A program made the translations under genes and the position numbers. A DNA stretch of 59,861 nucleotides from Candidatus Giovannonibacteria bacterium (GTDB lineage Bacteria; Patescibacteriota; Minisyncoccia; UBA11713; 2-01-FULL-45-33), in assembly GCA_030699445.1 (NCBI GenBank), contig JAUYMO010000023.1:1-59861 (forward strand). The letters are read 5' to 3'. Positions 13,093 through 54,101 of this stretch are shown here, piece after piece (the stretch's first letter is position 1; each line of letters starts with the position of its first letter). The notes below the pieces were generated by a model, which saw nothing but the letters and a program-made list of their open reading frames with translations, was not told the DNA's origin and did not search any database.

Positions 13093-13764
13093 ATGCCTAG
13101 AGTTAAATTTGGTGAGGGCGAATATTATCATATTTTTAATAGAGGCGTAGACAAGCGCCAAATTTTTTCAAACGACGCTGATAGATGGCGTTTTCTTACG
13201 CTGTTATGTGTTTTGCAGGGAGAAAATTCTTTTCCGCAAATCGGCCGCATAGTGCCTTTTGTCAGAAGTTCAAGTTTTGACAATGAGATGTTCGACGGGA
13301 CTATAAAGACAAAATATGTGGAATTGGTAAGTTTTTGCCTAATGCCAAACCATTTTCATTTGAAAATACGTGAACTTAAAGAAGGTGGCGTCTCTAAATT
13401 TATGCAGCGTTTGCTGGGCGCTTATACCAAATACTTTAATATGCGCCATGGCCGCACAGGGCATTTATTCGGCAGCAGATTCCACGCGGTTCATATAGAC
13501 AGCAATAAATATTTAAATTATCTTTCTGCTTACATTCACTTAAATCCCCGCGAATTAAAAGAGTGGCGCGGCAAAGAAATAAAATATCCATGGTCCAGTT
13601 TTCAGGATTTTACTTTTAAGAATCGTTGGAACGCTTTTTTAAATACCTCAATTATTCTAGATCAGTTTGCCACAAGATCAGAATACAAAAAATTCGTAGA
13701 AGATACCCCCATTAAGGAGTTGCGCGAAAATTTACCGGAAGAATATCAGAAGTTCGAGTTTTGA
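13093..13764 (+). CDS. IS200/RAYT-like HUH Y1 transposase family protein (paralog 1)
   Basis: YHIFNRG, an HUH motif (PNHFHL), and YLSAYIHLNP (catalytic Tyr region), as in COG1943/RayT-type proteins. Confidence 0.75.
   Translation: MPRVKFGEGEYYHIFNRGVDKRQIFSNDADRWRFLTLLCVLQGENSFPQIGRIVPFVRSSSFDNEMFDGTIKTKYVELVSFCLMPNHFHLKIRELKEGGVSKFMQRLLGAYTKYFNMRHGRTGHLFGSRFHAVHIDSNKYLNYLSAYIHLNPRELKEWRGKEIKYPWSSFQDFTFKNRWNAFLNTSIILDQFATRSEYKKFVEDTPIKELRENLPEEYQKFEF
13261..13282 (+). repeat. same hairpin, copy B (inside the ORF, near codon 57)
   Basis: Exact 22-mer repeat of 13041-13062. It is translated as FVRSSSFD. Confidence 0.7.
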
Positions 13765-18242: not shown

Positions 18243-18266
18243 CCTTCGGCGGGTAAACCCACTTCT

Positions 18267-19177: not shown

Positions 19178-19206
19178 TTGACATCATTTCAATATTAGGA
19201 TATAAT
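19178..19206 (+). promoter_or_regulatory. consensus sigma-70 promoter (TTGACA-17-TATAAT)
   Basis: Exact consensus hexamers with a 17-nt spacer. It drives the 19282 ORF. The palindrome TATGTCTA-N6-TAGACATA at 19076-19097 is a likely TrmB-type operator. Confidence 0.65.
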
Positions 19207-19281
19207 GTGAGTAGAAAGTAAAGATAGCTCATTAAGATTAACGTAGGCCTAAAAAGCCGAATAACAACAAGGAGGAGAATA

Positions 19282-19494: not shown

Positions 19495-19599
19495 CATCAA
19501 AAGAAAGTGCCAGCCACACTTTCATTAATAAGGCAGGACGAGACCGCAGCGCAAAAACAAAAGCCCCGCGATGGAAACATCAACGGGCTTTTTTCTTTT

Positions 19600-19974
19600 T
19601 CACAAATTCACATTTTCCAGCATCCTAATCCTAGCTTTTTTACGCGTAAAATCAAGGAAAATTGCTACCACATCAATTTCAAAATCTTTGTCGTCCGCGA
19701 TTTTTCGTTCCGCGAGATAAGTTCTTATCGCTCGGGATAACCGCTGTTTTTTCCACGCCCGCACCGCATCCTCCGGCCGAAAGTTCGGATTGGAAATCGC
19801 TTTCACCTCCACAAAATGTAAAATCCCCTCTTTTTCTGCAATAATATCCAACTCGCCCCATTTTTTGCGGTAATTTCTTTCAACAATCTTAAATCCCCTC
19901 TTTTCCAAAAATCTGCACGCCAAGCCCTCCCCGATATTCCCGACTTTTTGCTTTTGCGTAATTTTCTTTGCCAT
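19600..19974 (-). CDS. yraN: YraN family endonuclease (UPF0102)
   Basis: GEGLACRFLEKRGFKIVERNYR..GELDIIA...HFVEVK is typical of UPF0102. Confidence 0.8.
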   Translation of the reverse strand: MAKKITQKQKVGNIGEGLACRFLEKRGFKIVERNYRKKWGELDIIAEKEGILHFVEVKAISNPNFRPEDAVRAWKKQRLSRAIRTYLAERKIADDKDFEIDVVAIFLDFTRKKARIRMLENVNL

Positions 19975-20027
19975 TTTGACAATTTTATAACAATTAGGTA
20001 GCGTATGCCATAGAAAGGACAGACAAA

Positions 20028-20303
20028 ATGCTTAATAAACTTGAAAAAATGACGCGAAAATTGTTTTGTCTTTGCTTCGCCAGCACTTTTGTATCCTTTG
20101 CTTTGGGTTTTATTTTAATAGACCAAATAGCATCCCTATATTTTGCCGAGTTGAACCCGTTACCGCGTTTTTTGCTTAATTTTTCCCTAACATCCGCCTT
20201 AAGCGTTGGTATTATGGAAGTAATTTTTGGGCGCATCATAGACCCAATAGCCACGGAAATAGTGGAGATGGAAGAACTGTTGGAAAAAGAAAGCAAAACT
20301 TAA
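20028..20303 (+). CDS. hypothetical membrane protein (91 aa)
   Basis: Two hydrophobic helices and an acidic tail. A terminator lies at 20306-20331. Confidence 0.4.
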   Translation: MLNKLEKMTRKLFCLCFASTFVSFALGFILIDQIASLYFAELNPLPRFLLNFSLTSALSVGIMEVIFGRIIDPIATEIVEMEELLEKESKT

Positions 20304-20305
20304 AA

Positions 20306-20331
20306 ACCAGCACCCCCGCTGGTCTTTTTTT
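20306..20331. terminator. hairpin terminator
   Basis: ACCAGC-loop-GCTGGT followed by a T-run, between two convergent genes. Confidence 0.6.
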
Positions 20332-20470
20332 ATAAAATATCCAAAATCTTTTCACGGAGACCATCAAATCCGCGACAGGACATTATGACGATGACATCGC
20401 CAGATCTCGCCTCCCGTTTCACATGAAACAGAAACCGTATGTTTCCCGTGAAACACTTCGTCTTACCTAA
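20330..20470 (-). pseudogene. mpl: C-terminal segment of the mpl-like ligase, in the +1 frame
   Basis: It translates to ...ARSGDVIVIMSCRGFDGLREKILDIL, matching the Mpl C-terminus (GD.ILVMSNGGFGGI..KLLD.L in E. coli Mpl as I recall it). The frame differs from 20463-21623. Confidence 0.6.
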
Positions 20471-21623
20471 GCGAGCCGGTTTTATACGGCTTATAAAGAT
20501 AAACAATGTCGGCATGCCGAAACGCCTTGATGTATTGTTTCTCAAAGATACGGTGCTTGGACGAGGCAGAACCCGGCTCAAACATAAGAAATAGTCGTCG
20601 CCGCGCTTTCACGCCTTTTGCGTGAAACTTTGTTTTAAGCATAATTAATGTTTCACGGACGGCAGTAGGATGGTGAGCATAGTCGTCAATCACGGTTATC
20701 CCATTTTTCTCACCAATAATCTCGGACCGCCTTTTCACTCCTTTAAAGCTGGCTATGGCTTTTTTGATTGTTTCATGTGAAACGCCAACGAATCTTGCTA
20801 CGGCAATAGCCGCTTGAGTATTTTTGGCCATATAGTCGCCGTGTTTAAGCCCAAACAGTTTCATGCCTGCCCGCCGAAGCTTTAGCGTAGGCGGGTGAAA
20901 CTTATTCACCAATTCCATCACATTTTTGTCATAGCGGTTGGCAACTAAAAGGCCGTTATTCGGTATCAGATTTATGAAACGCGCGAAAGCGTATTTATAG
21001 GCCTCGAGATCCTTATATATATCCACGTGGTCGAGCTCAATGTTGTTTACCACCCCTATAAATGGGCGATAATGCCAAAACTTAGGACTTTTATCAAAAA
21101 AAGCCGTGTCATATTCATCGCCCTCTAAAACAATGTATTCGCCCTTGCCGAGTTTAAAAGTGCCATTAAAGTTTCCCGTGAACCCGCCGACAAACACGGT
21201 TGGGTCCAAACCGGCGCATTCCAAAATCCAGGCGATTAGTGCGGTGGTAGTCGTTTTGCCATGCGTGCCGGAAATTACAATGGCTTTCTTTCCAAAAATA
21301 AACTCATCTAAAAGTATATCGGACATTGACCGATATCCGCCAACTGGCGGATGTCCGTTAGAAAGCACGTGCTCCAATTCCGGATTGCCCCGGCCAATAG
21401 TATTACCAACAATTACCACATCCGGCTTCCAATGTTTCATGTGAAACGCCGAATATGGCGTGAAAACCTTGATTTTCAATTTTTCCAGCATACTTTTCAT
21501 CGGCTCATACATTTCCTGGTCCGAGCCGGCAACTTCGTAGCCCTTCCTTTTTAAAAGCCCCGCCAAGCTTGCCATTGCCACTCCGGCAATGCCGATTAAA
21601 TAGTAACGTTTCCCCTTTATCAT
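20463..21623 (-). CDS. mpl: Mur ligase family, UDP-N-acetylmuramate:tripeptide ligase (Mpl)-like, ends prematurely
   Basis: GIAGVAMASLAGLL, GNTIGRGNPE, GTHGKTTTTA, EGDEYDTAFFDKSPKFWHY and NNIELDHVDIY. The stop follows ...CUU AGG UAA and the reading continues in the +1 frame. Confidence 0.8.
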   Translation of the reverse strand: MIKGKRYYLIGIAGVAMASLAGLLKRKGYEVAGSDQEMYEPMKSMLEKLKIKVFTPYSAFHMKHWKPDVVIVGNTIGRGNPELEHVLSNGHPPVGGYRSMSDILLDEFIFGKKAIVISGTHGKTTTTALIAWILECAGLDPTVFVGGFTGNFNGTFKLGKGEYIVLEGDEYDTAFFDKSPKFWHYRPFIGVVNNIELDHVDIYKDLEAYKYAFARFINLIPNNGLLVANRYDKNVMELVNKFHPPTLKLRRAGMKLFGLKHGDYMAKNTQAAIAVARFVGVSHETIKKAIASFKGVKRRSEIIGEKNGITVIDDYAHHPTAVRETLIMLKTKFHAKGVKARRRLFLMFEPGSASSKHRIFEKQYIKAFRHADIVYLYKPYKTGSLR

Positions 21624-21663
21624 TAATTAATAATAGGGGAAAATTTTAGAAAATTAAAAATCC

Positions 21664-22215
21664 CTAAAAGCTGGGACGCAGGATAAGCTCGCTGGGAATA
21701 TCCGGGTTAAAAGTAAATCCTCCTTGAGAAGTAATATTAAAATCGCCTCCAATTTTTAAGCTCAAAACCTCAATTCCTTTCCCATTATTTACAAGCATTT
21801 TGCTGTTATTTCCAAATTTAAGGACAAAATGTTGCTCTAAAATCGGGCTTAAAACCAGTTCGGCTACTGTGCCCTTGCCGTTAAAACCAGGGCTTGGCAA
21901 ACCGCAAGCGATATGAACAGTCCCAAGCTGGCTATCTATTTTTTTTGCAACAAACATGTCCTTTCTGCAAAAAGATTTCTCAATAATGATCTCTTTAACT
22001 TGGACCACGTTGGGGTCGTATTTAACTGTGGCTTCCAGGGCGTTGATAGGAACGCCAACCGTCGCTGCCATAAGCGCGACTTTTAAATCGTGATTGTCTC
22101 CAAAAAAGGCCTCGGTTTGGCTAAAACTGAAGTTTGCATAGGGTAAACTATCCAATTCAAAAGCCCGAACTGGTGTAGTTATTAAAAAATAAATTAAAAA
22201 CACAATCGCGAACAT
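21664..22215 (-). CDS. secreted cohesin-domain-like protein
   Basis: Signal peptide. The pattern INALEATVKYDPNVVQV...GLPSPGFNGKGTVAELV...LVNNGKGIEVL resembles cohesin-like domains common in CPR proteins, judged from memory. Confidence 0.5.
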   Translation of the reverse strand: MFAIVFLIYFLITTPVRAFELDSLPYANFSFSQTEAFFGDNHDLKVALMAATVGVPINALEATVKYDPNVVQVKEIIIEKSFCRKDMFVAKKIDSQLGTVHIACGLPSPGFNGKGTVAELVLSPILEQHFVLKFGNNSKMLVNNGKGIEVLSLKIGGDFNITSQGGFTFNPDIPSELILRPSF

Positions 22216-22302
22216 CCTGCGAATCTAGCACATCAAAGAAAATAAGTCAAGTGCAAAAATTGTGCCAAAGCTGTATAAAAGCTGTGCCTAAAAAATCCGT
22301 TT

Positions 22303-22373
22303 TGGACCCAGGGAGAATCGAACTCCCGCCTGCGCAATGCGAATGCGCCGTTATACCACTTAACTATGGGCCC
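22303..22373 (-). tRNA. tRNA-Ala (anticodon CGC)
   Basis: Acceptor GGGCCCA / TGGGTCC with the G3:U70 pair, anticodon loop TTCGCAT, T-loop TTCGATT. Confidence 0.88.
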
Positions 22374-22386
22374 TTACAAAGTCCTG

Positions 22387-22566
22387 TCGGGGTGTCCCGC
22401 TAAGCGGGATCTTCGCGCACCCTTGCCCCGTTAGAAAATTTACTTTCGGAGAGCCGAGAATCGAACTCGGGCCTTACGCACCCGAAACGTATGTACTACC
22501 ACTATACTACTCTCCGATGATTTTCTAACGGGGCGAACGCGCGTACTGCCGGTATACTACACCCCG
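22387..22566 (-). pseudogene. tRNA-Pro-like gene split in its anticodon loop by an insert that contains tRNA-Pro(CGG)
   Basis: 5' half is CGGGGTG-TA-GTAT-ACCGGCA-GTAC-G-CGCGT-TCG. 3' half is GGGT-GCGCG-AAGA-TCCCGC-TTA-GCGGGA-CACCCCG-A. Acceptor and anticodon stems pair, but the T-loop is only 3 nt. Confidence 0.5.
22446..22516 (-). tRNA. tRNA-Pro (anticodon CGG)
   Basis: Acceptor CGGAGAG / CTCTCCG, anticodon loop TTCGGGT, T-loop TTCGATT. It is flanked by the 14-bp inverted repeat CCCCGTTAGAAAAT / ATTTTCTAACGGGG. Confidence 0.88.
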
Positions 22567-22600
22567 ATTATCCCGACGCTGCGGTCGGGATTCGCTTCAC

Positions 22601-24082
22601 TCATTTAACATAATGCTTCTTTTTTATTTTTAAAACTTCTTCTTCTTCCAACCCTAATTGTTTTTTGCGGCCGGCTTCGGCGAGTTTTTTAAGCTCCGCG
22701 TCGGAAAGTTTGTTTAATTCTAAAACGCGCGTTTCCAGATATTCAGGCGTGTTTTTTTGCGGGTCTTCCAGCACCTCGTCAAAAATGGCGTTAAGCAAAA
22801 AACCTATGCGCATGCCCTGAGGAAGCCCCGCGAGCTCTTTTATTTTGTCGCCGTTTAACTTCATCATCTTAAGAGAAACCGGGTCTCTTTGCAATTTTTC
22901 CACCAAAAAACGGAAATGGCGCAATTTGTAGGGCTCGGCTTTGGGCACGCCCGAACCGATGCGGTCGCAGATGCGCACGCGGATTAAATCTTCCATATCC
23001 TCCGGCCCAACGCGCGAAATTAGGCGCCTGACTGATGATTCCGAAACTTCGTCAACGTTATAATAAAATAAGTGATAGCGCACGAGCTTTGTAACTTTTT
23101 CCGCGAAATCATTTCCGTATTTCAAGCGCGACAAAACTATCGCGGACATTCTGGCGCCGATTACTTCGTGGTTATAAAAAGTGGAATTGGGCCCGTCGCC
23201 CATTTTGGCGCGCGGTTTGCCGATGTCGTGAAATAGCGCGGACATTCTGACAACCAACGGCCATTTTTCTTTTGCCGCGTGGTCTAAAGCGCGCGAATTA
23301 TGCTCCCAGACGGTATAAATATGGTGCTTATTTTGGCCGATGCCGTAGCCCTCTTCAATTTCCGGTAAAAAAAGTTTTAAAATTCCTGCTTCGCGGAGCG
23401 CCTCAAGCCCCTCCGATGGCTTAGCCGACATGATGATTTTAGAAAATTCATCGCGGATGCGCTCCTTTGCTATCATTTTGAGCAAATTCGCCTTATTTTT
23501 CAACGCTTTTTCAGTTTTTGCTTCAATCGCAAATCCCAGCTCCGCGGAAAATCTTACGGCGCGCATTATGCGGAGGGCGTCTTCGGCGAATCTCTCTTCG
23601 GGATCGCCAACCGCGCGGATTATTTTTTTATCAAAATCTTTTTTACATTTGAAAGTATAATTTATTTGGAATTCGGACTTCCTAAGGAAGTCCGACTTCC
23701 TTAAATTCAATGCCATCGCATTTACCGTAAAATCCCTCCGCGCCAAGTCATCTTCCAATTTATCCGCGAATTTTATCTCGTCCGGGTGGCGCTTGTCTGA
23801 ATATTTTCCTTCTAAGCGGTACGGCGTGATTTCTATGGCGCGAAGTTTTGGATCTTCGGAGCCCGTAACAACGCTTACCGTCCCAAATTTATTTTCATAA
23901 AAACTTTTCGGGAAGAGCTCCTGTATTTTTTCCGGGCGGGCATTGGTTGTGATATCCCAATCCTGCGGAATTCTGCCAATTAAAAGATCGCGAACGCATC
24001 CACCGACAAGATACGCTTCAAATCCGGCGCCCTCTAAAATAGCGACAGCCGCTCTTATTTCTTTTGGAATAGTGAAATTCAT
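22601..24082 (-). CDS. cca: CCA-adding tRNA nucleotidyltransferase with HD domain
   Basis: GGCVRDLLIGR, DWDITT, RDFTVNAMA, ED.LRIMRAVRF and an HD domain (LFHDIGKP). It carries a palindromic element at 23674-23704. Confidence 0.9.
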   Translation of the reverse strand: MNFTIPKEIRAAVAILEGAGFEAYLVGGCVRDLLIGRIPQDWDITTNARPEKIQELFPKSFYENKFGTVSVVTGSEDPKLRAIEITPYRLEGKYSDKRHPDEIKFADKLEDDLARRDFTVNAMALNLRKSDFLRKSEFQINYTFKCKKDFDKKIIRAVGDPEERFAEDALRIMRAVRFSAELGFAIEAKTEKALKNKANLLKMIAKERIRDEFSKIIMSAKPSEGLEALREAGILKLFLPEIEEGYGIGQNKHHIYTVWEHNSRALDHAAKEKWPLVVRMSALFHDIGKPRAKMGDGPNSTFYNHEVIGARMSAIVLSRLKYGNDFAEKVTKLVRYHLFYYNVDEVSESSVRRLISRVGPEDMEDLIRVRICDRIGSGVPKAEPYKLRHFRFLVEKLQRDPVSLKMMKLNGDKIKELAGLPQGMRIGFLLNAIFDEVLEDPQKNTPEYLETRVLELNKLSDAELKKLAEAGRKKQLGLEEEEVLKIKKKHYVK

Positions 24083-24091
24083 AATTTTTTA

Positions 24092-24163
24092 CGCCCTCGC
24101 CAGGATTTGAACCTGGAATACATGGTCCGAGGCCATGCGTGATATCCGTTTCACCACGAGGGC
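24092..24163 (-). tRNA. tRNA-Arg (anticodon TCG), with C at position 33
   Basis: Acceptor GCCCTCG / CGAGGGC, D-loop with A20, anticodon stem CATGG / CCATG, loop CCTCGGA, T-loop TTCAAAT. Confidence 0.75.
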
Positions 24164-24543: not shown

Positions 24544-24560
24544 GACGAGATGCGACCTCG
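24544..24560 (+). repeat. hairpin GACGAGATGCGACCTCG, copy A' (32 nt upstream of RAYT-like paralog 2)
   Basis: Identical 17-mer at 24748-24764. An inverted, 1-mismatch copy lies at 25271-25289. Confidence 0.7.
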
Positions 24561-24591
24561 ACATGGCTAGGAAACAGCGTATTATGGACAT

Positions 24592-25263
24592 ATGAGATTT
24601 GCTAAAGGCGAGTTTTATCACATTTACAATCGCGGGGTTGAAGGAAGAAATATTTTTATGGAAAGAGCGGATTATTTGCGATTCCTTCGCGGCTTAAAAG
24701 AATTTAACATTAATGGCAATACGAGGTTAGATCGCACAGCCGCTGCTGACGAGATGCGACCTCGTTCTCGTCAGAAACACACAGCATTAACATCAATTCT
24801 TGCCTATGTTTTGATGAAAAATCATATACATTTGTTGTTATATTGTATAAACGAAGAAAAGATGTCGCTTTTTCTGCAAAAAATTTTTGTTGGGCACACA
24901 ATGTACTTTAATACAAAATATCAAAGAACAGGCGTTCTCTTTCAGGGTAGATCAAAGTCTAAACATATTGACGACGATCACTATTTAAAACATCTAATTG
25001 ATTATATCCATTTAAATCCCTTAGATTATTCAATGCCCCAATGGCGAGAACACGGCATTAAAAATAGTTTGAGCACCAAAAACGAAATATTAAATTATCC
25101 ATGGTCAAGCGCAAAAAGCATAATAAATAACAAACCTAATCCGATTTTAAATGGAGAATTGGTCCGAGAGCTATTTCCTCATCCAAAAGAACTTTTAACG
25201 TCAGCGCTAGAATGGTCTTCAGAAAAATTTGAAGACGCAGCCGGCCTTTTAATTGAGCCTTAA
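24592..25263 (+). CDS. IS200/RAYT-like HUH Y1 transposase family protein (paralog 2)
   Basis: YHIYNRG, an HUH motif (KNHIHL) and HLIDYIHLNP. Same 223-aa length as paralog 1 but strongly diverged. Confidence 0.75.
   Translation: MRFAKGEFYHIYNRGVEGRNIFMERADYLRFLRGLKEFNINGNTRLDRTAAADEMRPRSRQKHTALTSILAYVLMKNHIHLLLYCINEEKMSLFLQKIFVGHTMYFNTKYQRTGVLFQGRSKSKHIDDDHYLKHLIDYIHLNPLDYSMPQWREHGIKNSLSTKNEILNYPWSSAKSIINNKPNPILNGELVRELFPHPKELLTSALEWSSEKFEDAAGLLIEP
24748..24765 (+). repeat. same hairpin, copy B' (inside the ORF, near codon 53)
   Basis: Translated as DEMRPRS. It also forms GACGAGA...TCTCGTC. Confidence 0.7.
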
Positions 25264-26136
25264 CTAACGTGACGAGGTCGCACCTCGTCGGCGGGCATGA
25301 AAAGCTTTATGGACTTCTTTTAATTGTTTGTCGGTAAAATGTGTGTAGATTTGCGTGGTGGAAATGTTGGAGTGGCCGAGCATAATCTGGACCGAACGGA
25401 GGTCGGCTCCGTTTTGCAATAAATCTGTGGCAAAAGCGTGGCGCAGGACATGCGGGGTGACTTTTTTGGCGATGCCCGCCTTAATCGCGTATTTTTTTAT
25501 CATTCGCTGGATTGAGCGCGGTGTCATCGGAAATAATTTATCGTTATCCACACTGCCGCGCTTTTCTAAATATTTTTTGATGGCCTCTTTGGCGCGGTCG
25601 GACAAAAAGACAACCCTAATCTTCCCGCCCTTTCCGCGGACGGAAAATTCGTCGCGTTTTAAATTAACATTATCAATTTTTAAATTGCAAAGCTCCGAAA
25701 TACGGAGTCCGGTTGAAAAAAAGAGTTCCAAAATCGCTTTGTCTCTTAAAATTTTCGCGGACTCGCCCTTGGGAGAGTCCAGCAATCTTTCCAAGTCGGC
25801 AATATCCAAAAGGTCTAATTCTCGCTGGGGAAGCTTGGCGAGCTCAATTTTTTCGGCATCCAGCGAATCAATATCTCTTTTCGCAAGATATTTCAAAAAC
25901 ATCCGGAGCGCGATGACATAATAATTCTGCGTATTTTTGTCCAAGTTCGCGCGGTTAAGATAAAGCCGGTATTTTCTTACTAACTCTTCGGTAATCTGGC
26001 CAGCAGAATCAATTTTTGAAAATTCAAAAAACCTTTTTAAATACCTGTCATAATTTTCTACAGTCTTCACGGCTCTCCCTTTTTCAATCTCTAGATATTC
26101 AAGAAACTCCTTCTTTAATTTTGCGACACTTTCCAT
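25264..26136 (-). CDS. tyrosine recombinase XerC/XerD family
   Basis: [31 protein letters not shown] and [14 protein letters not shown]. Confidence 0.88.
25271..25289 (-). repeat. same hairpin, copy C' (inverted, perfect 8-bp stem)
   Basis: GACGAGGT-CGC-ACCTCGTC, 8 nt after the RAYT-like stop. It encodes the last residues (RRGATSS) of the convergent xer gene. Confidence 0.7.
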
Positions 26137-38192: not shown

Positions 38193-39989
38193 ATGCTAGA
38201 TTTAGCGTTGTTAAATTCCAAACAAAAAGAGGCGGTGGAGGCCACAGAAGGGCCGGTTTTGGTTGTGGCGGGCGCCGGAGCGGGAAAAACCAAGGTCATC
38301 ACCGAGCGGATTAAATATTTAATTGAAAAAGATGTTCCACCCGAATCAATTTTGGCAGTTACTTTCACAAATAAAGCCGCGGGGGAGATGAAAAGCCGCG
38401 TGGCGCGTTCCGGCCCATTCATCGGCACTTTTCACGCTTTGGGGCTTTTAATTATCCGCGAAAACCTGAAAGGGCTAGGCATTGCCAAAAATTTTACTAT
38501 TTTAGACGAAGATGACGCCCTAAAACTCATAAAAGAATGCCTTTTGGAGTTAAAAATTGACCCGAAGCAATTTGACCCGTCCAGAATCAGAAATAATATT
38601 TCCCGCTTGAAAAATCAGATGATGACGGCGGATGAGTTTATTGAGGAAAGCGCATTTGGAAAAATACTGGGGAGAGTCTGGCGGCTTTATGAAGAAAAAA
38701 CCAAAGCGCAGAATTTGCTGGATTTTGACGATTTGCTTTTAAAGCCGGTTTTGCTTTTTAAAAAAGATGCCGAGGCGCTGAAAAAATATCAGGAGCGCTG
38801 GCGCTACATCCATATAGACGAATACCAGGATACAAACGAAGCGCAATATGTTTTGTCAAAAATGCTTGCGGAAAGTAGCCGCAATATTTTGGCGGTGGGC
38901 GACATTGACCAGGCAATCTACAGCTGGCGGGGAGCGGATTTTAAAAATGTTTTGAATTTCCAAAAAGATTATCCGGACGCCAAAGTTGTTTTTCTGGAAG
39001 AAAATTACCGCTCCACCGATATTATTTTGGAAGCGGCAAACGCCGTTATAACGCATAATAAATTCCGCATACCAAAAAATCTATGGACAAAAAGAACCGG
39101 CGAAAACCAAATCCGGATTTTTTTCGCGGAAGACGAAAAAAAGGAAGCGGAAATGGTCGCCAGCGAAATAAAATTCCTGAAAACAAAAATAAAATTGAGC
39201 GAAATGGCGGTTCTTTACCGCACCAACGCCCAATCGCGCGCCATGGAAGAAGTTTTTTTGGCGAAAAATATTCCTTATAAAATTACCGGCGGAGTGCGTT
39301 TTTACGAAAGGCGCGAAATAAAAGATTTAATAGCGTATCTAAGGCTTATTAGAAATCCGGAGAACGGATTGAGCTACAATAGAATCGCGAATGTCCCGCC
39401 GCGCAAAAAAAAGAAAATAGATTTTGACGCGCTTATAGAAAATTTACGTAACGATACTGACAATATAAACGCGCAAGAACTCCTAAAAAAAATTATTAGT
39501 AAAATAGAATATAGAGACTATATTGATGACGGAACGGAGAAGGGAAAAGAAAGATGGCAAAATGTGGAAGAGCTTCTGGGTCTCGCCCAAAAAATAGAAA
39601 ATTTGGATGAATTTTTGGAGCATATTTCTCTTTTTGCCATAGATGATAATTACGATAAAATTGAGGACCGCGTGAGTTTAATGACCATGCATTCAGCCAA
39701 AGGGCTTGAATTTGAAGCTGTTTTTGTGGTTGGCTTGGAAGAGGGGCTTTCCCCGCACACGCTTTCATTTGAACCGGAGGATTTGGAAGAAGAGCGCCGG
39801 CTTTATTACGTGGCCATAACCCGCGCCAAAACTCATCTCTATCTGACCGCGGCCGGGCGCCGGACTCTTTTCGGCGAGCGCGCGGCGAATATGCCTTCCA
39901 GATTTTTAAAAGAAATCCCCGAGCATTTGCTGGTTTATTTAAATAAACGGGAGGGCGAAGAAATAGAAGAAAATATTTATGTTGAATAA
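38193..39989 (+). CDS. uvrD: UvrD/PcrA/Rep-family DNA helicase (short, 598 aa)
   Basis: AGAGAGKTKV, DEYQDTN, VGDIDQAIYSWRGA, LEENYRS, TMHSAKGLEF and YVAITRAK. Confidence 0.9.
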   Translation: MLDLALLNSKQKEAVEATEGPVLVVAGAGAGKTKVITERIKYLIEKDVPPESILAVTFTNKAAGEMKSRVARSGPFIGTFHALGLLIIRENLKGLGIAKNFTILDEDDALKLIKECLLELKIDPKQFDPSRIRNNISRLKNQMMTADEFIEESAFGKILGRVWRLYEEKTKAQNLLDFDDLLLKPVLLFKKDAEALKKYQERWRYIHIDEYQDTNEAQYVLSKMLAESSRNILAVGDIDQAIYSWRGADFKNVLNFQKDYPDAKVVFLEENYRSTDIILEAANAVITHNKFRIPKNLWTKRTGENQIRIFFAEDEKKEAEMVASEIKFLKTKIKLSEMAVLYRTNAQSRAMEEVFLAKNIPYKITGGVRFYERREIKDLIAYLRLIRNPENGLSYNRIANVPPRKKKKIDFDALIENLRNDTDNINAQELLKKIISKIEYRDYIDDGTEKGKERWQNVEELLGLAQKIENLDEFLEHISLFAIDDNYDKIEDRVSLMTMHSAKGLEFEAVFVVGLEEGLSPHTLSFEPEDLEEERRLYYVAITRAKTHLYLTAAGRRTLFGERAANMPSRFLKEIPEHLLVYLNKREGEEIEENIYVE

Positions 39990-40770
39990 GCAAAAAAAGT
40001 TTTTGGGCCAGCATTTTCTAAAAAATAAAAAAATCTTGGAGGAGATGGCGCGCGCGGCGGAAATTTCTAAGAAAGATATTGTTTTGGAAGTCGGCCCGGG
40101 CTTGGGCTCGCTTACGGAAATTTTGGCGGAGCGCGCCGGAAAAGTAATCGCGATAGAAAAAGACAGGGATTTAATTCCTGTTTTGCGCGAGAAATTCAAA
40201 AATTATAAAAATGTTGAAATTATTGAAGGAGATATTTTAAAAATTAAATACCTCCCCTTGCCCCTCCTTGTAAAGGAGGGGATAAAACATTATAAAATTG
40301 TCGCCAATCTTCCATACTATATAACCTCGCGTTTTCTGCGCCTATTCTTGTCCCAAACCAGGTTTAGGTCAAAGCTGATGGTGCTTATGGTTCAAAAAGA
40401 AGTCGCCGAAAGAATTTTGGCGCGCGACGGAAAGGAATCTTTGCTTTCTCTTTCCGTAAAAGCTTACGCTAAAGCGGAAATTATACGGCGCGTTTCAAAA
40501 AATTTTTTCTCGCCTCCGCCAAAAGTTGATTCGGCAATAATTAAGCTAACCCCTTACCCCCAAACCCCCTTTCCCCTTCGTAAGGGGAAAGGGGGCGATG
40601 TTGAAAAAATTCTTGCCGTTGCTAAAATCGCCTTCCAGCAAAAACGCAAAATGCTCCGGCATTCTCTTTCGAGGTTCAACCTTAATAATTTAGAAGAATA
40701 TGGAAATAAGCGCCCGGAAGAACTTAGCTTTAAAGACTGGGTTCATATTCACACCCTAATTGTGCCGTAA
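39979..40770 (+). CDS. rsmA: 16S rRNA (adenine1518/1519-N6)-dimethyltransferase RsmA/KsgA
   Basis: LGQHFL, EVGPGLGSLT, ANLPYYITS and FSPPPKVDSA. Two GC hairpin elements lie inside the ORF (40251-40283 and 40550-40596). Confidence 0.9.
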   Translation: MLNKQKKFLGQHFLKNKKILEEMARAAEISKKDIVLEVGPGLGSLTEILAERAGKVIAIEKDRDLIPVLREKFKNYKNVEIIEGDILKIKYLPLPLLVKEGIKHYKIVANLPYYITSRFLRLFLSQTRFRSKLMVLMVQKEVAERILARDGKESLLSLSVKAYAKAEIIRRVSKNFFSPPPKVDSAIIKLTPYPQTPFPLRKGKGGDVEKILAVAKIAFQQKRKMLRHSLSRFNLNNLEEYGNKRPEELSFKDWVHIHTLIVP

Positions 40771-46001: not shown

Positions 46002-46709
46002 ATGGATGAAACAAATAAAAACATAGAAATAATGGAGCGATATAAAGACCTGCCGGAAGATATCCAGCAAGCTCTCTTTTCATCCGCGACTTCGGATGCG
46101 ATTTTAGCAATCGGCAAAAAAAATGGGCTGGCAATTGATAAAATCGGGGAGTTGGTTGATGAAACCGGTTTGGTAATGCTTGGAATCACTTCGCCTTCGG
46201 ATTATGTAAAAAATCTGGTGAGCCGATTAAGTGTAACGCAAGAAAAGGCGCGCGCCATCGCGGAAGAAATCAACCAAAAAGTTTTCCAGCCGGTAAGAGA
46301 GTCGCTGAAGAAGATTCATGGGTTGGCGGCAGAAAAGCCCACACCACCCCCCCCAGCCCCCCCCTTCGTAAGGGGGGGAGCTGAAGAAAAACCCCTTCCC
46401 CCTTACGAAGGGGGAAGGGAAGGGCTAGGGGTTAAAAAACCTCTCCCCAAACGCGAAGATATTGTCCCGCCGCCCAAAGCGCTTCCCAAACCGGAAATCC
46501 CGGAACCACTTCTAATCCCGCCGATTTTCGTTAAAAAATTTCCCGAGCCGATAGTTTCTAAACCCGATATTGTTCCTCCCGCGAAAGAACCGTTGCCGCA
46601 AGATTCTCTCGCGGCCAAAAGCGCGCTGGATAAAGAATTAAACGCTCCGCCATCACCGCGGCCACAGCAGTATAAAGAAAAAGACCCTTATCGTGAGATA
46701 ATAGAATAA
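46002..46709 (+). CDS. Pro-rich protein (T4SS-like locus)
   Basis: Globular N-terminal 105 aa, then a P-rich tail that includes two C-run/G-run hairpin elements (46357-46378 and 46393-46419). Confidence 0.5.
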   Translation: MDETNKNIEIMERYKDLPEDIQQALFSSATSDAILAIGKKNGLAIDKIGELVDETGLVMLGITSPSDYVKNLVSRLSVTQEKARAIAEEINQKVFQPVRESLKKIHGLAAEKPTPPPPAPPFVRGGAEEKPLPPYEGGREGLGVKKPLPKREDIVPPPKALPKPEIPEPLLIPPIFVKKFPEPIVSKPDIVPPAKEPLPQDSLAAKSALDKELNAPPSPRPQQYKEKDPYREIIE

Positions 46710-46710: not shown

Positions 46711-47133
46711 ATGCAGCACCAAGTCCCACAATTTATAGATATAGAAGATAAAATTTTCGGGCCTTTAACGGCCAAGCAGTTTTTCTATATCTTGGGCGGC
46801 GCCGCTATTCTTTTTATAATGTACGTTTATCTTCAGCTTTGGCTGGTAATTATTCTTGGCGCTCCGGTCGCGGCGTTCGCCGGTTCTCTGGCGTTTTTGA
46901 AAATCAACGGCCAGCCATTTATTAAAATTCTTGGGAGCGCCATAGATTACGCTTCTTCGGCAAGATTATATTTGTGGAAGAAGAGCCCGCCGCGCGGGAA
47001 AACACTCGGTGTTTTTGGGGATTCAACACCGAGTGTTGAGGAGCGCGAGCGGGCTACAACCCCCAAACTCACCCAAAGCAAATTACAAGATTTATCCTGG
47101 TCCTTAGACATCCAAAAAAATATTAAACGATAA
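46711..47133 (+). CDS. PrgI-family (VirB3-analogue) membrane protein
   Basis: QVPQFIDIEDKIFGPLTAKQFFYILGG plus two TM helices, directly upstream of VirB4-like genes. It carries the 37-nt element at 47001-47037. Confidence 0.65.
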   Translation: MQHQVPQFIDIEDKIFGPLTAKQFFYILGGAAILFIMYVYLQLWLVIILGAPVAAFAGSLAFLKINGQPFIKILGSAIDYASSARLYLWKKSPPRGKTLGVFGDSTPSVEERERATTPKLTQSKLQDLSWSLDIQKNIKR

Positions 47134-47135: not shown

Positions 47136-47783
47136 ATGGCTAACGCTTTACCATCGCAAGACATTTTAAAGATAGAAGAAATCCGTGACGGCGTCATGGT
47201 TTTAAAAGACGGCTCTTTGCGCGCCGTGATGATGGCTTCTTCTTTGAATTTTTCCTTAAAAAGCGCGGATGAGCAGACCGCCGTCATTATGCAGTACCAA
47301 AATTTCCTGAACTCTTTGGATTTCACGGTGCAATTTTTTCTGGAGTCGCGAAAATTAAATATTGAGCCATATCTTGACACTTTAAAAGAAGCCGAGGCAA
47401 AACAAACCAACGAACTTTTGAAAATTCAGATAACGGAATATATAGAATTTATCCGCACCTTCGTCCGCGCGGCGAATATCGTGAGCAAAAATTTTTATAT
47501 TGTCGTGCCTTTCACTCCCGCGCTTTTTACGACGCCGAAGGAAGGGGTAAAAAGTTTGTTGGGAATTTTCGGAAAAAAATCCGCGGAAAATAAAAATCTG
47601 CCGCAGGATAAATTTGACGAATACAAAAATCAGCTCTGGCAAAGAGTGGACAGTGTAATTCAAGGCCTGGTGCGGACAGGCGTCAGGGCGGTTCCATTAA
47701 ACACCGAGGAATTAATTGAGCTTTTTTACAGCCTTTACAACCCGGGCGAATTAGAAAAAGGAAAGCCCCCGGCATTAACATAA
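47136..47783 (+). CDS. VirB4 N-terminal-domain-like protein (215 aa)
   Basis: ILKIEEIRDGVMVLKDGSLRAVMMASSLNFSLKSADEQ... resembles the N-terminal region of VirB4/TrsE-type proteins. No NTP-binding motif. Confidence 0.45.
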   Translation: MANALPSQDILKIEEIRDGVMVLKDGSLRAVMMASSLNFSLKSADEQTAVIMQYQNFLNSLDFTVQFFLESRKLNIEPYLDTLKEAEAKQTNELLKIQITEYIEFIRTFVRAANIVSKNFYIVVPFTPALFTTPKEGVKSLLGIFGKKSAENKNLPQDKFDEYKNQLWQRVDSVIQGLVRTGVRAVPLNTEELIELFYSLYNPGELEKGKPPALT

Positions 47784-47787: not shown

Positions 47788-49599
47788 ATGGCTTTTTTAG
47801 ATATCTTCAAGAAAAAAGAAAAAGAAACGGAAATCACGCCGGTTTTTCCGGAGGAAATTTACCGCGCCGGCGTTTTGGAATTAAAAGACGTCATCGCGCC
47901 CGCCGCTTTGGAGGTCACTGCCAACCACATGAGATTGGGCGAGAAGCTGATGCGGACAATTTTTATTTTTTCGCTTCCCAGATTCCTTTCATCCAACTGG
48001 TTTTCTCCAATAATAAATTTGGATAAGGTTTTTGACGTTTCCATATTCGTGCATCCGGTGAACACCGCCGCGGTTTTAAAAAAGCTCCAGCGGAAAGTCG
48101 CCGAAGTGCAGTCGCAGGTTTCCATCCGGCAGGAGAAAGGGCTTGTGCGCGATCCTGTTTTGGACACAGCTTTCCAGGATTTGGAGGCCTTGCGCGACAA
48201 GCTCCAGCAGGCGCAGGAAAGATTATTTAATTTTGGCCTTTACATCGCGGTTTACGGAAACACCATAGAAGAGTTGGACAAGGCGGAGACGGAAATAAAA
48301 TCCATGCTGGAATCGCGCCTGGTTTACGCCAAGCCCGCGCTTTTCCAGCAAAAAGAGGCGCTGGATTCCGTTTTTCCGCAGGCCTTGGACACTCTCGGCG
48401 TTAATACTTACCTGAATTCCTCTCCGGCATCCAGTATCTTTCCGTTTGTTTCTTTTGATCTCACTTCCAATAGGGGGATTCTTTACGGCATCAATTCGCA
48501 TAATAATTCGCTGATTTTATTTGACCGCTTCAGTTTGGAAAATTATAACTCGGTAATTTTCGCCAAAGCCGGCGCCGGAAAATCTTACACAACAAAGCTG
48601 GAAATACTGCGCTCGCTGATGTTTGAAACGGATGTCATCGTCATAGACCCGGAAAAAGAATACGAATATCTCGCCGAGGCGGTGGGCGGAAGATATTTTA
48701 ATATATCTTTGACCTCGCACCACCATATCAATCCTTTTGACCTGCCGATGCCGCGGGAGGATGAATCGCCAGCGGATGTTTTGCGCTCGCACATCATAAA
48801 TTTGGTCGGTCTTTTCAGAATTATGCTTGGAGGGCTCACGCCGGAAGAAGATTCCGTCATTGACCGCGCCATCACCGAAACTTACGCTTCGCGCGACATC
48901 ACGCCGGATTCTGATTTTTCAAAAGCCACTCCGCCGATACTTTCCGATTTGGAATTGGTTATCGCCAACATGGAAGGAGGCGAATCCTTGGCGCAGCGCC
49001 TGCGAAAATTTACCAAAGGCACCTGGGCGGGATTTATAAACCAGCCGACCAATGTTGATATCAACCAAAAATGCGTGGTTTTTTCCGTCCGCGACATGGA
49101 GGATGAATTGCGGCCGGTCGCGATGTATCTGATAATCCACTATATCTGGAGCGCCATACGCGCGAACATTAAAAAAAGATTACTGGTGGTGGACGAGGCA
49201 TGGTGGATTATGAAAAATGAAGACGGGGCGTCGTTTCTTTTCGGCATCGCCAAGCGCGCCAGAAAATATTATCTGGGACTTGCCACAATCACCCAGGACG
49301 TCGGCGACTTTTTAAATTCGCCCTACGGAAAACCTTTAATTACGAACTCTTCCATTCAAATTTTATTGCGCCAGTCTCCGGCATCAATTGACCTTTTAAA
49401 ACAAACTTTCAATTTAACAGACGAAGAAAAATTTTTGCTTCTTGAATCCGATGTCGGCGAGGGGTTATTTTTCGCGGGACTAAAACATGTCGCCATCAAA
49501 ATACTTGCTTCCTACACCGAAGACCAATTAATCACATCCGACCCCGCCCAGCTTTTGGCGATTAAAAAGGCGAAAGAGGATTTTAAGCAACAAACATAA
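47788..49599 (+). CDS. VirB4/TrsE-like type IV secretion ATPase
   Basis: Walker A in AKAGAGKSYTTK, Walker B in LLVVDEAWWIM, and a downstream ATITQDVGDF motif. 603 aa. Confidence 0.8.
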   Translation: MAFLDIFKKKEKETEITPVFPEEIYRAGVLELKDVIAPAALEVTANHMRLGEKLMRTIFIFSLPRFLSSNWFSPIINLDKVFDVSIFVHPVNTAAVLKKLQRKVAEVQSQVSIRQEKGLVRDPVLDTAFQDLEALRDKLQQAQERLFNFGLYIAVYGNTIEELDKAETEIKSMLESRLVYAKPALFQQKEALDSVFPQALDTLGVNTYLNSSPASSIFPFVSFDLTSNRGILYGINSHNNSLILFDRFSLENYNSVIFAKAGAGKSYTTKLEILRSLMFETDVIVIDPEKEYEYLAEAVGGRYFNISLTSHHHINPFDLPMPREDESPADVLRSHIINLVGLFRIMLGGLTPEEDSVIDRAITETYASRDITPDSDFSKATPPILSDLELVIANMEGGESLAQRLRKFTKGTWAGFINQPTNVDINQKCVVFSVRDMEDELRPVAMYLIIHYIWSAIRANIKKRLLVVDEAWWIMKNEDGASFLFGIAKRARKYYLGLATITQDVGDFLNSPYGKPLITNSSIQILLRQSPASIDLLKQTFNLTDEEKFLLLESDVGEGLFFAGLKHVAIKILASYTEDQLITSDPAQLLAIKKAKEDFKQQT

Positions 49600-52159: not shown

Positions 52160-52873
52160 ATGAAAGAATCTTTTCAACCAAGTGAATCGCCGGAGAAAGA
52201 GAAGGGGTCTCTTTGGCAAACGTTTAGAGATATGAAAAACGCGGTGGCGTTCGCGGCGCTTTTGGCGTTCGCCGCTCCGGGGATTACCTCCGCCCAAGAA
52301 AAAGAAACTCGCCCGGAAGGAACAAAAATCAGCGATACGGAAAGGGGAATTGAAAAAATAAAAGAAGATGTTTTAAAAATCGCCGAGAGCTTGAAAATAA
52401 AAGGGCGAGAGGGAAAATTCGGGCAAACGGCAACTCGCAGGTGGGTTTCAGAAAATAAGGAGGTTATTGTCGCTGGTTACGAAAATGATGGCAAGGCGCG
52501 CTGGATAATTTTAGAGAATGAAAACGCGCAGATGAGATTTTTTGATATGTCGGCGGATGGCTCTGTGAATAGAGTTATTATTAACGATGAAAAATCGCCC
52601 GCCGGAAGAAAGGCAACCGATAATGATATAAAAACTTTTGTTTCTATGGATAAATTAGCCAAAGACGCACGCGTATCAGCTGATTTAATGCCGGAAAAAG
52701 CGCATGTGTACGAGCTCGGAAAAGAAAACAATGAGATTATACTGCGCGGAGTTGATTTTGAAAAAGGTGAGTCCGAAAAAGTAATCGGGCCGGAAGCAAA
52801 AAAGCTCGCGGAAAGAGTCCAAAACTTATTTAACGCGAAAGTCGCCCAACACAGCGCGGAGCTTGCGAAATAA
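52160..52873 (+). CDS. secreted hypothetical protein
   Basis: ATG at 52160 after a TTGTCA-16-TATAAA promoter. Signal-like AVAFAALLAFAAPGITSAQE. The ORF track starts at the GTG at 52088. Confidence 0.5.
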   Translation: MKESFQPSESPEKEKGSLWQTFRDMKNAVAFAALLAFAAPGITSAQEKETRPEGTKISDTERGIEKIKEDVLKIAESLKIKGREGKFGQTATRRWVSENKEVIVAGYENDGKARWIILENENAQMRFFDMSADGSVNRVIINDEKSPAGRKATDNDIKTFVSMDKLAKDARVSADLMPEKAHVYELGKENNEIILRGVDFEKGESEKVIGPEAKKLAERVQNLFNAKVAQHSAELAK

Positions 52874-52874
52874 A

Positions 52875-54101
52875 ATGGAAAATTTATTAACAAAAAGAAA
52901 TATAATAATCGCGGGGGTGGGAATAGTTATTCTCATCGGAATTTTGTTTTATTTTGGGTCAAAAAGCGGGACGCAGGGAACGGGAGGGGGGGGATTTTTA
53001 GGAACTATTTTTCCGTCTTCGGCGCCCTCCCCAACACTCGGTGTTGGCGGGCCTCAAACACCGAGTGTTTTGCCAGGCGGCGAACTGCCTCTAACCCCTC
53101 AAGCCGCCCAAAGTTTGCCTGTGGGCACATTAATTCGCTTGAGTGATGATAATATTTCTTCTCTTGTTGGAGTTGGCACAACGTCAGTCCGCTACCATAA
53201 AAATATTCCTGAAAATCTTGGGCATCTTTTTGAAAGGCGCGCGGACGGCGCGAGCGAAGAAAAAAGGATTTCCAATTTCACCATTCCGCAGGTTTTGCGC
53301 GTGGTCTGGGCGCCGGACGCCAAGCGCGCCGTGATTTTTTATAATTTAGATAATCAAATAAGAAAACTTTTGATTGATTACTCAACCACAACCCCAAAAA
53401 CGAATTTTCTTCCGGACGCCGTTTCGGATGTGGCTTTTTCTCCCGATTCCAAATCGCTGGCGTTTATAAATGATAGTGGTGACACCCAAAATATTTTTAC
53501 GGCAACGTCTGATTTTAAAAACCAAAGAAAAATTTTGGATAACGACATTCCTGGCCTGGAAATTTCCTGGCCGGCCGCGAACACAATCGCTTTAAAAACA
53601 AAATCATCCTACGCCGTGCGCGGATTTTTATACGCGGTTAATATAGGAAGCGGGGCATTTTCAAAAATCGCCGAAGGGCTGGGCTTGGACGCCATTTGGA
53701 ATAAAGACGGCTCGGGAGTGCTTTATTCCAGAAGCGACGCGGACGGCAATATATTGAACATTAAATTTTTGGACATAAAAACCGGCGCGGAAAAAGAATT
53801 TTCAGTAAAAACCATCGCTGAAAAATGCGCGTTTTTAAATACCTTAAAAAATATCGCTTACTGCGGAGTCCCCCGATTAAGCGCAGGCCGGATTACCGAA
53901 AAGCAGCCCGACGCATGGTGGCAGGGAAAAGTAAGTTTCCAAGATAATTTTGTTTCGCTGGACACCGCGACCGGCCAAAATTCTGTTTTTGTCCCGACTC
54001 CCACAGACATTACCCAGCCAAAACTGCTTTTAGACGATTCTTCCCTCCTTTTCCGCGACAAAACCTCCGGCAATCTTTGGAGCTTAAAATTGAAGCCTTA
54101 G
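52875..54101 (+). CDS. membrane-anchored TolB-like beta-propeller protein
   Basis: TM helix (IIIAGVGIVILIGILFYF), a Gly/Pro linker with the 37-nt element (53033-53069), and PD40-like repeats (VAFSPDSKSLAFINDSGD). Confidence 0.5.
   Translation: MENLLTKRNIIIAGVGIVILIGILFYFGSKSGTQGTGGGGFLGTIFPSSAPSPTLGVGGPQTPSVLPGGELPLTPQAAQSLPVGTLIRLSDDNISSLVGVGTTSVRYHKNIPENLGHLFERRADGASEEKRISNFTIPQVLRVVWAPDAKRAVIFYNLDNQIRKLLIDYSTTTPKTNFLPDAVSDVAFSPDSKSLAFINDSGDTQNIFTATSDFKNQRKILDNDIPGLEISWPAANTIALKTKSSYAVRGFLYAVNIGSGAFSKIAEGLGLDAIWNKDGSGVLYSRSDADGNILNIKFLDIKTGAEKEFSVKTIAEKCAFLNTLKNIAYCGVPRLSAGRITEKQPDAWWQGKVSFQDNFVSLDTATGQNSVFVPTPTDITQPKLLLDDSSLLFRDKTSGNLWSLKLKP

Follow-up and report, generated by a model that had tools for sequence, protein, structure and literature searches.

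In-frame hairpin doublets in genes of candidate phyla radiation bacteria: probable REPIN-like elements cognate to a clade of Y1 HUH transposases

Two 37-nt palindromes are translated in frame within two genes of a 59,861-nt contig of Candidatus Giovannonibacteria bacterium (JAUYMO010000023.1, assembly GCA_030699445.1; this whole stretch is hereafter the window), and our investigations indicate that they are probably the cores of a non-autonomous, REPIN-like hairpin-doublet element that resides in coding sequence and is cognate to a Parcubacteria clade of Y1 HUH transposases. REPINs are doublets of repetitive extragenic palindromic (REP) sequences that form hairpins, and they belong to systems with REP-associated tyrosine transposases (RAYTs) (Bertels & Rainey; PMC3116915, PMC3337134, PMC5581495). 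Our comparisons establish the anatomy of the element, its dispersal, the frame and orientation in which it is read, its turnover at orthologous sites and the correspondence between its hairpins and those of transposase genes. The element is REPIN-like in its working, yet it lies outside the described REPIN and RAYT groups, and it resembles the Rickettsia palindromic elements (RPEs) in its in-frame residence.

The initial annotation of this DNA had reported the arrangement AACACTCGGTGTT-N11-AACACCGAGTGTT at 47001-47037 and at 53033-53069, and we found it exactly twice in the window, at these positions and nowhere else. Copy by copy, AACACTCGGTGTT lies at 47001-47013 with its reverse complement AACACCGAGTGTT at 47025-47037, and at 53033-53045 with AACACCGAGTGTT at 53057-53069; these four are the only exact 13-mer matches in the 59,861 nt, all of them inside the two doublets. 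The next-nearest site (5600-5612) has two mismatches and is the only other one at two or fewer, with none at one or fewer, and 0 of 100 shuffled windows equalled the observed number of matches. The annotation was also right that both 13-mers are identical in the two copies, where only the 11-nt spacer differs (TTTGGGGATTC in copy 1, GGCGGGCCTCA in copy 2), and that the mutually reverse-complementary 13-mers are each a hairpin, in which a 5-bp stem closes a loop of 3 nt (-1.9 kcal/mol as DNA). In the fold of each 37-mer, 13 bp enclose the 11-nt loop (-13 kcal/mol, z -6.1 and -5.5). The unit is, however, larger than the 37 nt that had been proposed: the full element is a hairpin of about 70 nt composed of copy-specific, pairing outer arms, a conserved 5x5 purine mismatch (GGGAA/GAGGA), the two 13-nt arms (H1 and H2) and the 11-nt loop. 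In the same way CCCGCC, which had been set apart as a separate family, is here the element's own outer arm in copy 1, as is GCGCC/GGCGG in copy 2. The two copies, their parts and their host genes are as follows.

46984..47056, + strand: copy 1, whole element; fold -29.5 kcal/mol, z -8.1; covariance model E 2.9e-26
46984-46995: copy 1, left outer arm AGCCCGCCGCGC, then GGGAA (46996-47000) and H1 (47001-47013)
47014-47024: copy 1, loop TTTGGGGATTC, then H2 (47025-47037)
47038-47042: copy 1, GAGGA, then right outer arm GCGCGAGCGGGCT (47043-47055)
53018..53084, - strand: copy 2, whole element; fold -22.7 kcal/mol, z -5.4; covariance model E 1.1e-21 on the - strand
53018-53027: copy 2 as read on the + strand, left outer arm TTCGGCGCCC, then TCCCC (53028-53032) and H1 (53033-53045)
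53046-53056: copy 2 as read on the + strand, loop GGCGGGCCTCA, then H2 (53057-53069)
53070-53074: copy 2 as read on the + strand, TTGCC, then right outer arm AGGCGGCGAA (53075-53084)
46711..47133, + strand: host gene 1, PrgI-family membrane protein of 140 aa (PF12666, 43.6 bits)
52863..54101, + strand: host gene 2, membrane-anchored protein (open reading frame (ORF) and homologues)
Peptide stretches of the element: TLGVFGDSTPSV and TLGVGGPQTPSV

Copy 1 has its purine shell on the coding strand (orientation A) and encodes SPPRGK-TLGV-FGDS-TPSV-EERERA, whereas in copy 2, which encodes SSAPSP-TLGV-GGPQ-TPSV-LPGGE, the shell is on the minus strand, giving orientation B with respect to the gene; a covariance model of the 81-nt family recognises exactly these two members in the window, one on each strand. 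The loop of copy 2 belongs to a subfamily, GGYGGGCYKCA, that is also present at four other loci (L055, L058, L061 and L176). Both copies are read in frame as TLGV..TPSV, as had been annotated, within KTLGVFGDSTPSV in host gene 1 and PTLGVGGPQTPSV in host gene 2. Copy 1 had been assigned to the C-terminal tail of a PrgI-like protein; the host is indeed PrgI-like, but the element occupies a hypervariable linker that runs from LYLWKK to the conserved C-terminal motif PKLTQSKLQDLSWSLDIQ (PKLTQSK), and is not simply in a tail. Copy 2 does lie in a linker, a low-complexity one about 20 aa past the N-terminal transmembrane (TM) helix, but its beta-propeller assignment has no Pfam match on the window protein, PD40-type matches being present only in some homologues. 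This second protein likely starts at ATG 52875, since its homologues open with MENLLTKRN. Both hosts belong to a cluster resembling a type IV secretion system (T4SS), with a PrgI family protein, a VirB4/TraG-type P-loop ATPase and a T4SS pilin. The VirB4/TraC-like ATPase itself is represented by two adjacent ORFs, 47136-47783 (N-terminal, weak TraC_F_IV match) and 47788-49599 (P-loop), which tblastn matched separately, at adjacent positions, in L083, L080, L106 and L111.

Public sequencing runs containing the window sequence were DNA only and were available as contigs. Independent Logan contigs reproduce copy 2 without differences, and they break inside copy 1, where word depth is about three times higher, as would be expected of a multi-copy repeat. 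In the Logan contigs of one run, examined at 46827-47053, word depth over copy 1 is about 29 against 8-10 in the neighbouring sequence. Several Logan contigs stop within copy 1 and their continuations differ, the repeat breaking short-read assemblies.

We scanned genome and metagenome collections for the exact arms separated by any spacer of 1-30 nt. Exact doublets are present in 66 genome stretches and more than 120 metagenome stretches, nearly all from assemblies of the candidate phyla radiation (CPR)/Patescibacteria (Giovannonibacteria, Kaiserbacteria and Vogelbacteria among them), with up to 9-15 exact doublets in a single metagenome-assembled genome (MAG). They total 195, of which 144 lie in open frames of at least 150 codons, and 125 of these 144 are in the TLGV..TPSV frame; 53 host protein families are represented. 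Spacers are mostly 5, 8, 11, 14 or 17 nt, lengths that leave both arms in one frame. The hosts, assigned by conserved motifs, are mostly housekeeping enzymes (EF4/LepA, leucyl-tRNA synthetase, UvrB, a Mur ligase, GatB, methionine aminopeptidase, a NifS-like protein, valyl/isoleucyl-tRNA synthetase, RecR, seryl-tRNA synthetase and the CCA-adding enzyme). The insertion sites are linkers and domain junctions, into which the element brings the Gly/Ser/Thr/Pro-rich peptide TLGV-x4-TPSV.

The common architecture of these copies is a variable outer arm, GGGAA, H1, the loop (most often TTTGGGGATTC), H2, GAGGA and the reverse complement of the outer arm, and an identical 47-nt core (GGGAA-H1-loop-H2-GAGGA), often with the outer arm GCCTCGC, recurs in many non-homologous genes. 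The outer arms vary between copies and pair within each copy: across 56 sequences 84% of cells are paired, changes occur on both sides in 10/10 pairs, and neither 500 shuffles (0/500 matching) nor a slid-partner control (33-44%) reaches this level. Both DNA orientations are translated, as xRGK-TLGV-FGDS-TPSV-EERx or, in the reverse-complement reading, as xRSS-TLGV-ESPK-TPSV-FPRx. All four combinations of shell and loop orientation are seen, and the loop therefore flips independently of the shell. The translation of both orientations and the unrelatedness of the hosts exclude a shared peptide function and point to a dispersed DNA element tolerated in loops. A conserved peptide motif was rejected, since the peptides of the two orientations are reverse-complement readings and the site in orthologues has either a different doublet or no doublet. 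The initial annotation had likewise proposed a DNA-level palindrome shared by unrelated genes; orthologues of the host proteins carry no element, a flipped one or another doublet, and among them we found none with the TLGV..TPSV motif encoded by non-palindromic DNA.

Sequences next to the palindrome are GGGAA/GAGGA in the shelled family, TGTYM/KRACA beside Y1 genes and variable in a 31-nt family, and no flanking direct repeats of the kind left by target-site duplication surround the 31/37-nt core or the shelled element. With no such duplication seen, a classical MITE, a miniature transposable element defined by terminal inverted repeats and target-site duplication, was rejected. Rfam at the gathering threshold returned only tRNAs for the whole window (eight tRNA genes are located at 7827-24163, within the first 25 kb), and at E<=10 the element region gave only chance miRNA-like matches. 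A search of IMG/VR for viral carriers found no exact doublet.

Comparison of orthologous sites reveals repeated turnover. In the PrgI linker, the close relative L139 has the same element as the window, L174 has the window's element at the same place in the opposite orientation, and L080 has arms (AACATCCGATGTT/AACATCGGATGTT) that differ by four coordinated substitutions. L083 (3162-3617) carries a complete orientation-A element with KPGF arms (GAAACCTGGTTT/AAACCAGGTTTC) nested in a second shell (CTCCTC...TTCCC, with its own outer arms), an arrangement suggesting that an existing element either received an insertion or grew. In distant homologues the linker is plain and rich in Lys/Glu. For the propeller-type protein, relatives that are 81-84% identical have no recognisable doublet, and other relatives have TLGV, KPGF, TPGV, TSDV or PPYEGG doublets at the same position. 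Linker length in these two proteins is roughly conserved and not simply increased. The arm types tend to agree within a genome (TLGV in both T4SS genes of the window, KPGF in both of the L083 genome). The 26 arm nucleotides are preserved exactly between lineages in which identity of the orthologous proteins is only 27-54%.

In EF4 the empty site can be recognised in most of the 120 closest homologues, including some that are 80-81% identical, as IPPP followed by 5-8 residues and RALIFDFEY. A patchy subset is 12-25 aa longer and has TLGV, TPGF, KSDF or DVGRPSGRPTS doublets there; compared with solved EF4 structures, 13 aa are inserted in the L006 protein at the junction of the G domain and domain II. 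At this site the native IP(P/S)P codons make up the left outer arm, which the right arm mirrors as a reverse complement, lineage-specific synonymous differences included (CCG..CGC/GCG..CGG in L006, CCA CGC/GCG TGG in L189, CATCGCCCC/GGGGCGATG in L011). This suggests that the EF4 palindrome may have been extended or homogenised by fold-back copying or conversion, although the detail is unexplained. A second insertion in L006, about 23 aa long (FPISNFQFPNNKLKIENSKIENS, residues ~80-102), precedes the DTPGH motif; neither the L011 orthologue nor the solved EF4 structures have it, and it may represent a further repeat family.

The window contains two doublets of other arm types, both in frame, in genes with orthologues that have the TLGV element.

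23668..23700, - strand: KSDF-type doublet GGAAGTCGGACTTCC / GGAAGTCCGAATTCC, in frame (RKSDF-L-RKSEF) in the CCA-adding enzyme ORF 22601-24082
46360..46414, + strand: doublet of a third arm family, CCCCCTTCGTAAGGGGG N21 CCCCCTTACGAAGGGGG, in frame (PPFVRGG..PPYEGG) in ORF 46002-46709

The KSDF-type doublet directly follows RRDFTVNAMA, and the CCA-adding orthologue of L098 has a TLGV element at that site; the orthologue of ORF 46002-46709 in L003/L083 has an exact TLGV doublet in place of the CCCCCTTCGTAAGGGGG/CCCCCTTACGAAGGGGG type. A CCCCCTT/AAGGGGG family is in frame at 46360-46414 and also at 40565-40595 (ORF 39979-40770), the latter palindrome encoding TPFPLRKGKGG, and the related peptides SPPYEGG and SPPYQGG occur at the PrgI and propeller sites of other genomes. 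Also inside ORF 39979-40770, at 40352-40367, is a single KPGF-type hairpin-like sequence, CCCAAACCAGGTTTAGG, with one mismatch relative to the hairpin of a Y1 gene at L105.

The link to transposases comes from the 13-mer itself, which at some loci is also found singly in a longer stem (TGTYM-AACACYSRGTGTT-KRACA). In L028 such hairpins flank and interrupt a 244-aa ORF (184-915) that matches Y1_Tnp (PF01797, 33.8 bits, cut-off 23) and has an HUH motif and a YxHxNP tyrosine motif. Homologues are present at about 20 of the loci compared, and two are in the window. The AACAC hairpin (AACAC-YSR-GTGTT) accompanies a Y1 gene at five independent loci: it lies within the ORF as well as at the 3' end in L028, L066 and L078, it was detected only upstream in L136 and L181, and a doublet adjoins the Y1 gene in L028, L066, L078 and L181. 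Some members of the family have the peptide of the AACAC hairpin (KHRVF/KHSVF/QHSVL) at the internal position. This hairpin is one case of a wider arrangement: a hairpin scan detected gene-specific copies near most of the Y1 homologues, and among the 11 hairpin types counted, each Y1 gene has two to three copies of its own hairpin, most having all three, situated about -40 to -100 upstream, in frame inside the ORF, and at the 3' end at +630 to +690. Three of these types double as arms of in-frame doublets elsewhere (KPGF/CCAAACCAGGTTTGG at L105, GAAGCCGAGCTTC at L108, CTTGGAAG..CTTCCAAG at L039); the Y1 hairpin GCGAAGCCGAGCTTCGC is of a doublet arm type other than KPGF. The L039 type forms an in-frame doublet, with one core mismatch, in an 870-aa ORF of L058, which belongs to the same MAG as L039. 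In L028 (Kaiserbacteria MFLD01000011), at 111-2400, the Y1 gene and its AACAC hairpins form an identical tandem pair (period 1,136 bp), which may reflect a genuine duplication or movement of the entire unit, or else come from the assembly.

Two diverged Y1 genes are present in the window, each with a private repeat at the three positions.

13093..13764, + strand: Y1 HUH transposase gene 1, IS200/RAYT-like, 223 aa, motifs NHFHL and YIHLNP (PF01797, 43.4 bits)
13043-13061, 13263-13281 and 13747-13765: private repeat CAGAAGTTCAAGTTTTGAC of gene 1, upstream, in frame in the ORF and at the 3' end, respectively
24592..25263, + strand: Y1 HUH transposase gene 2, 223 aa, motifs NHIHL and YIHLNP (PF01797, 20.5 bits, under the cut-off of 23)
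24544-24562, 24748-24766 (inside the ORF) and 25271-25289: private hairpin GACGAGGTCGCACCTCGTC of gene 2

In the gene 1 repeat (TGTCA-GAAGTTCAAGTTT-TGACA) the outer stem is that of the AACAC-type hairpins, but the 13-nt core is non-palindromic and the hairpin is not of that type. The two paralogues are 36% identical in alignment; H87, H89, Y147 and N151 are invariant across 10 Y1 sequences, and PF01797 scores above its cut-off in 5 of 6 proteins tested, with window gene 2 just below. The only NCBIfam match is to the REP-associated tyrosine transposase model NF047646, at 27-41 bits. The family is very large, homologues of the window protein (E<=1e-10) forming 8,164 clusters when grouped at 50% identity. 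A single-sequence AlphaFold model of gene 1 was unusable (pLDDT 33), as was an enrichment of Y1 genes near doublets, since Y1 genes are frequent anyway (about one per 30-70 kb of the DNA compared); our argument therefore rests on the identity and position of the hairpins and not on proximity.

Y1 HUH enzymes such as the TnpA of IS200/IS605 and TnpA-REP recognise single-stranded DNA hairpins, next to which they cleave and rejoin the strand. A possible mechanism for the doublets would be that the two inverted REP-like hairpins fold into one long hairpin in single-stranded DNA, that a Y1 enzyme binds them there and, by analogy with these enzymes, cuts and rejoins the strand, and that this activity moves doublets and exchanges arms at resident copies. 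Selection would then retain only frame-preserving insertions in tolerant loops, and the variable outer arms could arise, or stay complementary, by fold-back copying or conversion within the hairpin. Judged from the sequences, mobility of the element is most likely, and transposase activity is its predicted driver. We consider more tentatively, and at somewhat less than even chances, that Parcubacteria have a large and diversified Y1 HUH family with private hairpins that maintains and rewrites in-gene doublets, by arm swaps to the active type, loop flips and the growth of palindromes from native codons. The in-frame hairpin within the transposase gene could be a self-regulating site.

Several points weigh against assigning the doublets to a REPIN-like system. 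The window contains no Y1 gene with an AACAC hairpin, and the other hairpins of its two Y1 genes are not dispersed within it. No mobility event, excision junction, target-site rule or target-site duplication was seen. The doublets are mostly intragenic and there are two Y1 genes per 60 kb, unlike classical REPIN/RAYT systems; the NCBIfam RAYT model has a cut-off of 80, far above the scores of our proteins, and the PDB match is no closer to TnpA-REP (4er8, E 0.086) than to ISDra2 TnpA (2xm3, E 0.027). No GTAG/CGTC tag stands beside the hairpin. The native codons in the left outer arm of EF4 are not predicted by simple cut-and-paste of a complete element, and only by assuming selection can we explain why one of the two open frames is used almost exclusively.

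One alternative is an RPE-like, selfish in-frame palindromic repeat spread by another route, such as recombination or another enzyme, with Y1 genes as mere hosts. Dispersal, in-frame residence, both orientations and patchy presence can be had without any specific enzyme, the window lacks the cognate Y1 gene, and Y1 ORFs carry an in-frame hairpin as any host gene does. Yet 11 private hairpin types, each in two or three copies at stereotyped positions of a Y1 gene, have the architecture of an IS200/RAYT unit and not of random colonisation, and a cognate repeat that flanks the Y1 gene is the defining REP/RAYT association (PMC3337134); we therefore regard this explanation as unlikely. An origin at each site without any transposition, by template switching or fold-back synthesis and in-hairpin conversion at tolerant linkers, with similarity spread by gene conversion, would account for the EF4 right arm that mirrors native codons and tracks their synonymous differences, for the independently flipping loops, for the nested shells in the L083 PrgI gene and for the roughly conserved linker lengths. 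It is nevertheless very improbable, as local processes cannot repeatedly make the same 47-nt core in many non-homologous genes, and conversion between sites sharing only 13-47 nt still requires an initial dispersal.

The least probable of the alternatives is a host function selected at each site, be it an mRNA or DNA structure (pause, processing, attenuation), an uptake or binding site, or a flexible linker module. The strong covariation of pairing, the persistence of the element at the same site in orthologues of several genomes and the retention of the 26 arm nucleotides despite the divergence of the proteins would all be accommodated by it. Against this, both orientations are used, so that the RNA would differ (a purine versus a pyrimidine internal loop), close relatives lack the element, the hosts are functionally unrelated, no Rfam family matches, and the FGDS and ESPK variants, being translated from reverse complements of a single DNA, do not amount to one peptide motif. 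A translational pause about 30-40 aa after TM helices, an idea that originated from the location of both window copies 20-32 aa past such a helix, was rejected, as a TM helix lies within 60 aa upstream in 14 of 116 hosts versus 10% of random positions. Uptake sequences typically occur about once per kb; with two elements per 60 kb (four 13-mers in 59.9 kb) the density here is far too low, and a DNA uptake sequence or binding-site array was rejected as well.

If the REPIN-like reading is correct, it extends REPIN/RAYT-type systems, known from intergenic DNA and mostly from Proteobacteria, to the CPR, and shifts this relationship from intergenic space to the loops of housekeeping proteins, such elements being able to persist inside coding sequence in very gene-dense genomes. 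We found nothing relevant in the literature on palindromic or in-frame repeats of CPR/Patescibacteria. We know of no enzyme that mobilises RPEs; our reading would provide a candidate mechanism for RPE-type coding palindromes, and it links the RPE-like, in-frame palindromes of housekeeping genes with a definite enzyme family open to tests in vitro. For the annotation and alignment of CPR genes, it would explain many short, hypervariable G/S/T/P-rich insertions (TLGV..TPSV, KPGF..KPGF, KSDF..KSDF) as being of DNA-level origin, and it would also explain contig breaks at these repeats in assemblies. The series of empty, flipped and arm-swapped orthologous sites represents a natural record of the turnover of hairpin elements.

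Several known systems share part of this description. Mitochondrial double-hairpin elements and GC clusters are short, have two hairpins, are dispersed and are sometimes in frame in protein-coding genes; they differ in residing in fungal and algal organelle genomes, in having unrelated sequences and in being without a known associated transposase. As in IS200/IS605 and PATE-type MITEs, a Y1 HUH gene is bracketed by subterminal hairpins, there are no classical terminal inverted repeats and no target-site duplication, and the short derivatives consist of hairpin ends only. Unlike IS200/IS605, no identical multi-copy transposase genes were seen here, except for the L028 tandem duplicate; instead there are diverged paralogues with private hairpins, a third hairpin inside the ORF, and derivatives in coding sequence. 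The RPEs (Ogata et al. 2000, 2002), as far as they are summarised in PMC10969869, are in-frame repeats, and like them the element is a palindromic repeat in frame in unrelated, often housekeeping genes of a small, gene-dense genome, its conserved peptide being added in places that the protein fold can accommodate. Length and host set the two apart, RPEs measuring about 100-150 bp and being confined to Rickettsia, against 31-75 nt in the CPR, and further differences are the 13-nt hairpin from which our element is built, the reading of both orientations, the swapping of arms at orthologous sites and the Y1 link. The closest likeness is to REPIN-RAYT systems: the element consists of two inverted, short, imperfect palindromes with a short spacer that form one long hairpin, its pairing is maintained by compensated changes, and it may reach tens of copies per genome (here two in 60 kb, and 9-15 exact ones in single MAGs). 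REP superfamilies are reportedly tagged by a conserved tetranucleotide, GTAG or CGTC, at one palindrome end, and the element has no such tag. REPINs of the classical kind lie outside genes, with about 1-2 RAYTs per replicon (PMC3337134, PMC5581495), whereas the element is intragenic and in frame and the Y1 paralogues appear frequent, with two in 60 kb. It is also much shorter (31-75 nt, against about 90 nt for a REPIN), the transposases are proteins of about 220 aa, well under the RAYT equivalog cut-off, with their own hairpin in frame inside the ORF, and the hosts are CPR/Patescibacteria and not Proteobacteria. The proteins nevertheless have the HUH and Tyr motifs, with the RAYT model as their sole NCBIfam match, and in related genomes each Y1 HUH paralogue is tied to, and flanked by, its own hairpin type. 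The co-occurrence of a cognate Y1 gene and doublets in one MAG is seen for the arm type of L039/L058, the window Y1 genes having non-AACAC hairpins. A private hairpin flanking each Y1 paralogue, together with dispersed doublets of that hairpin, is what defines REP/REPIN-RAYT associations (PMC3337134, PMC5581495).

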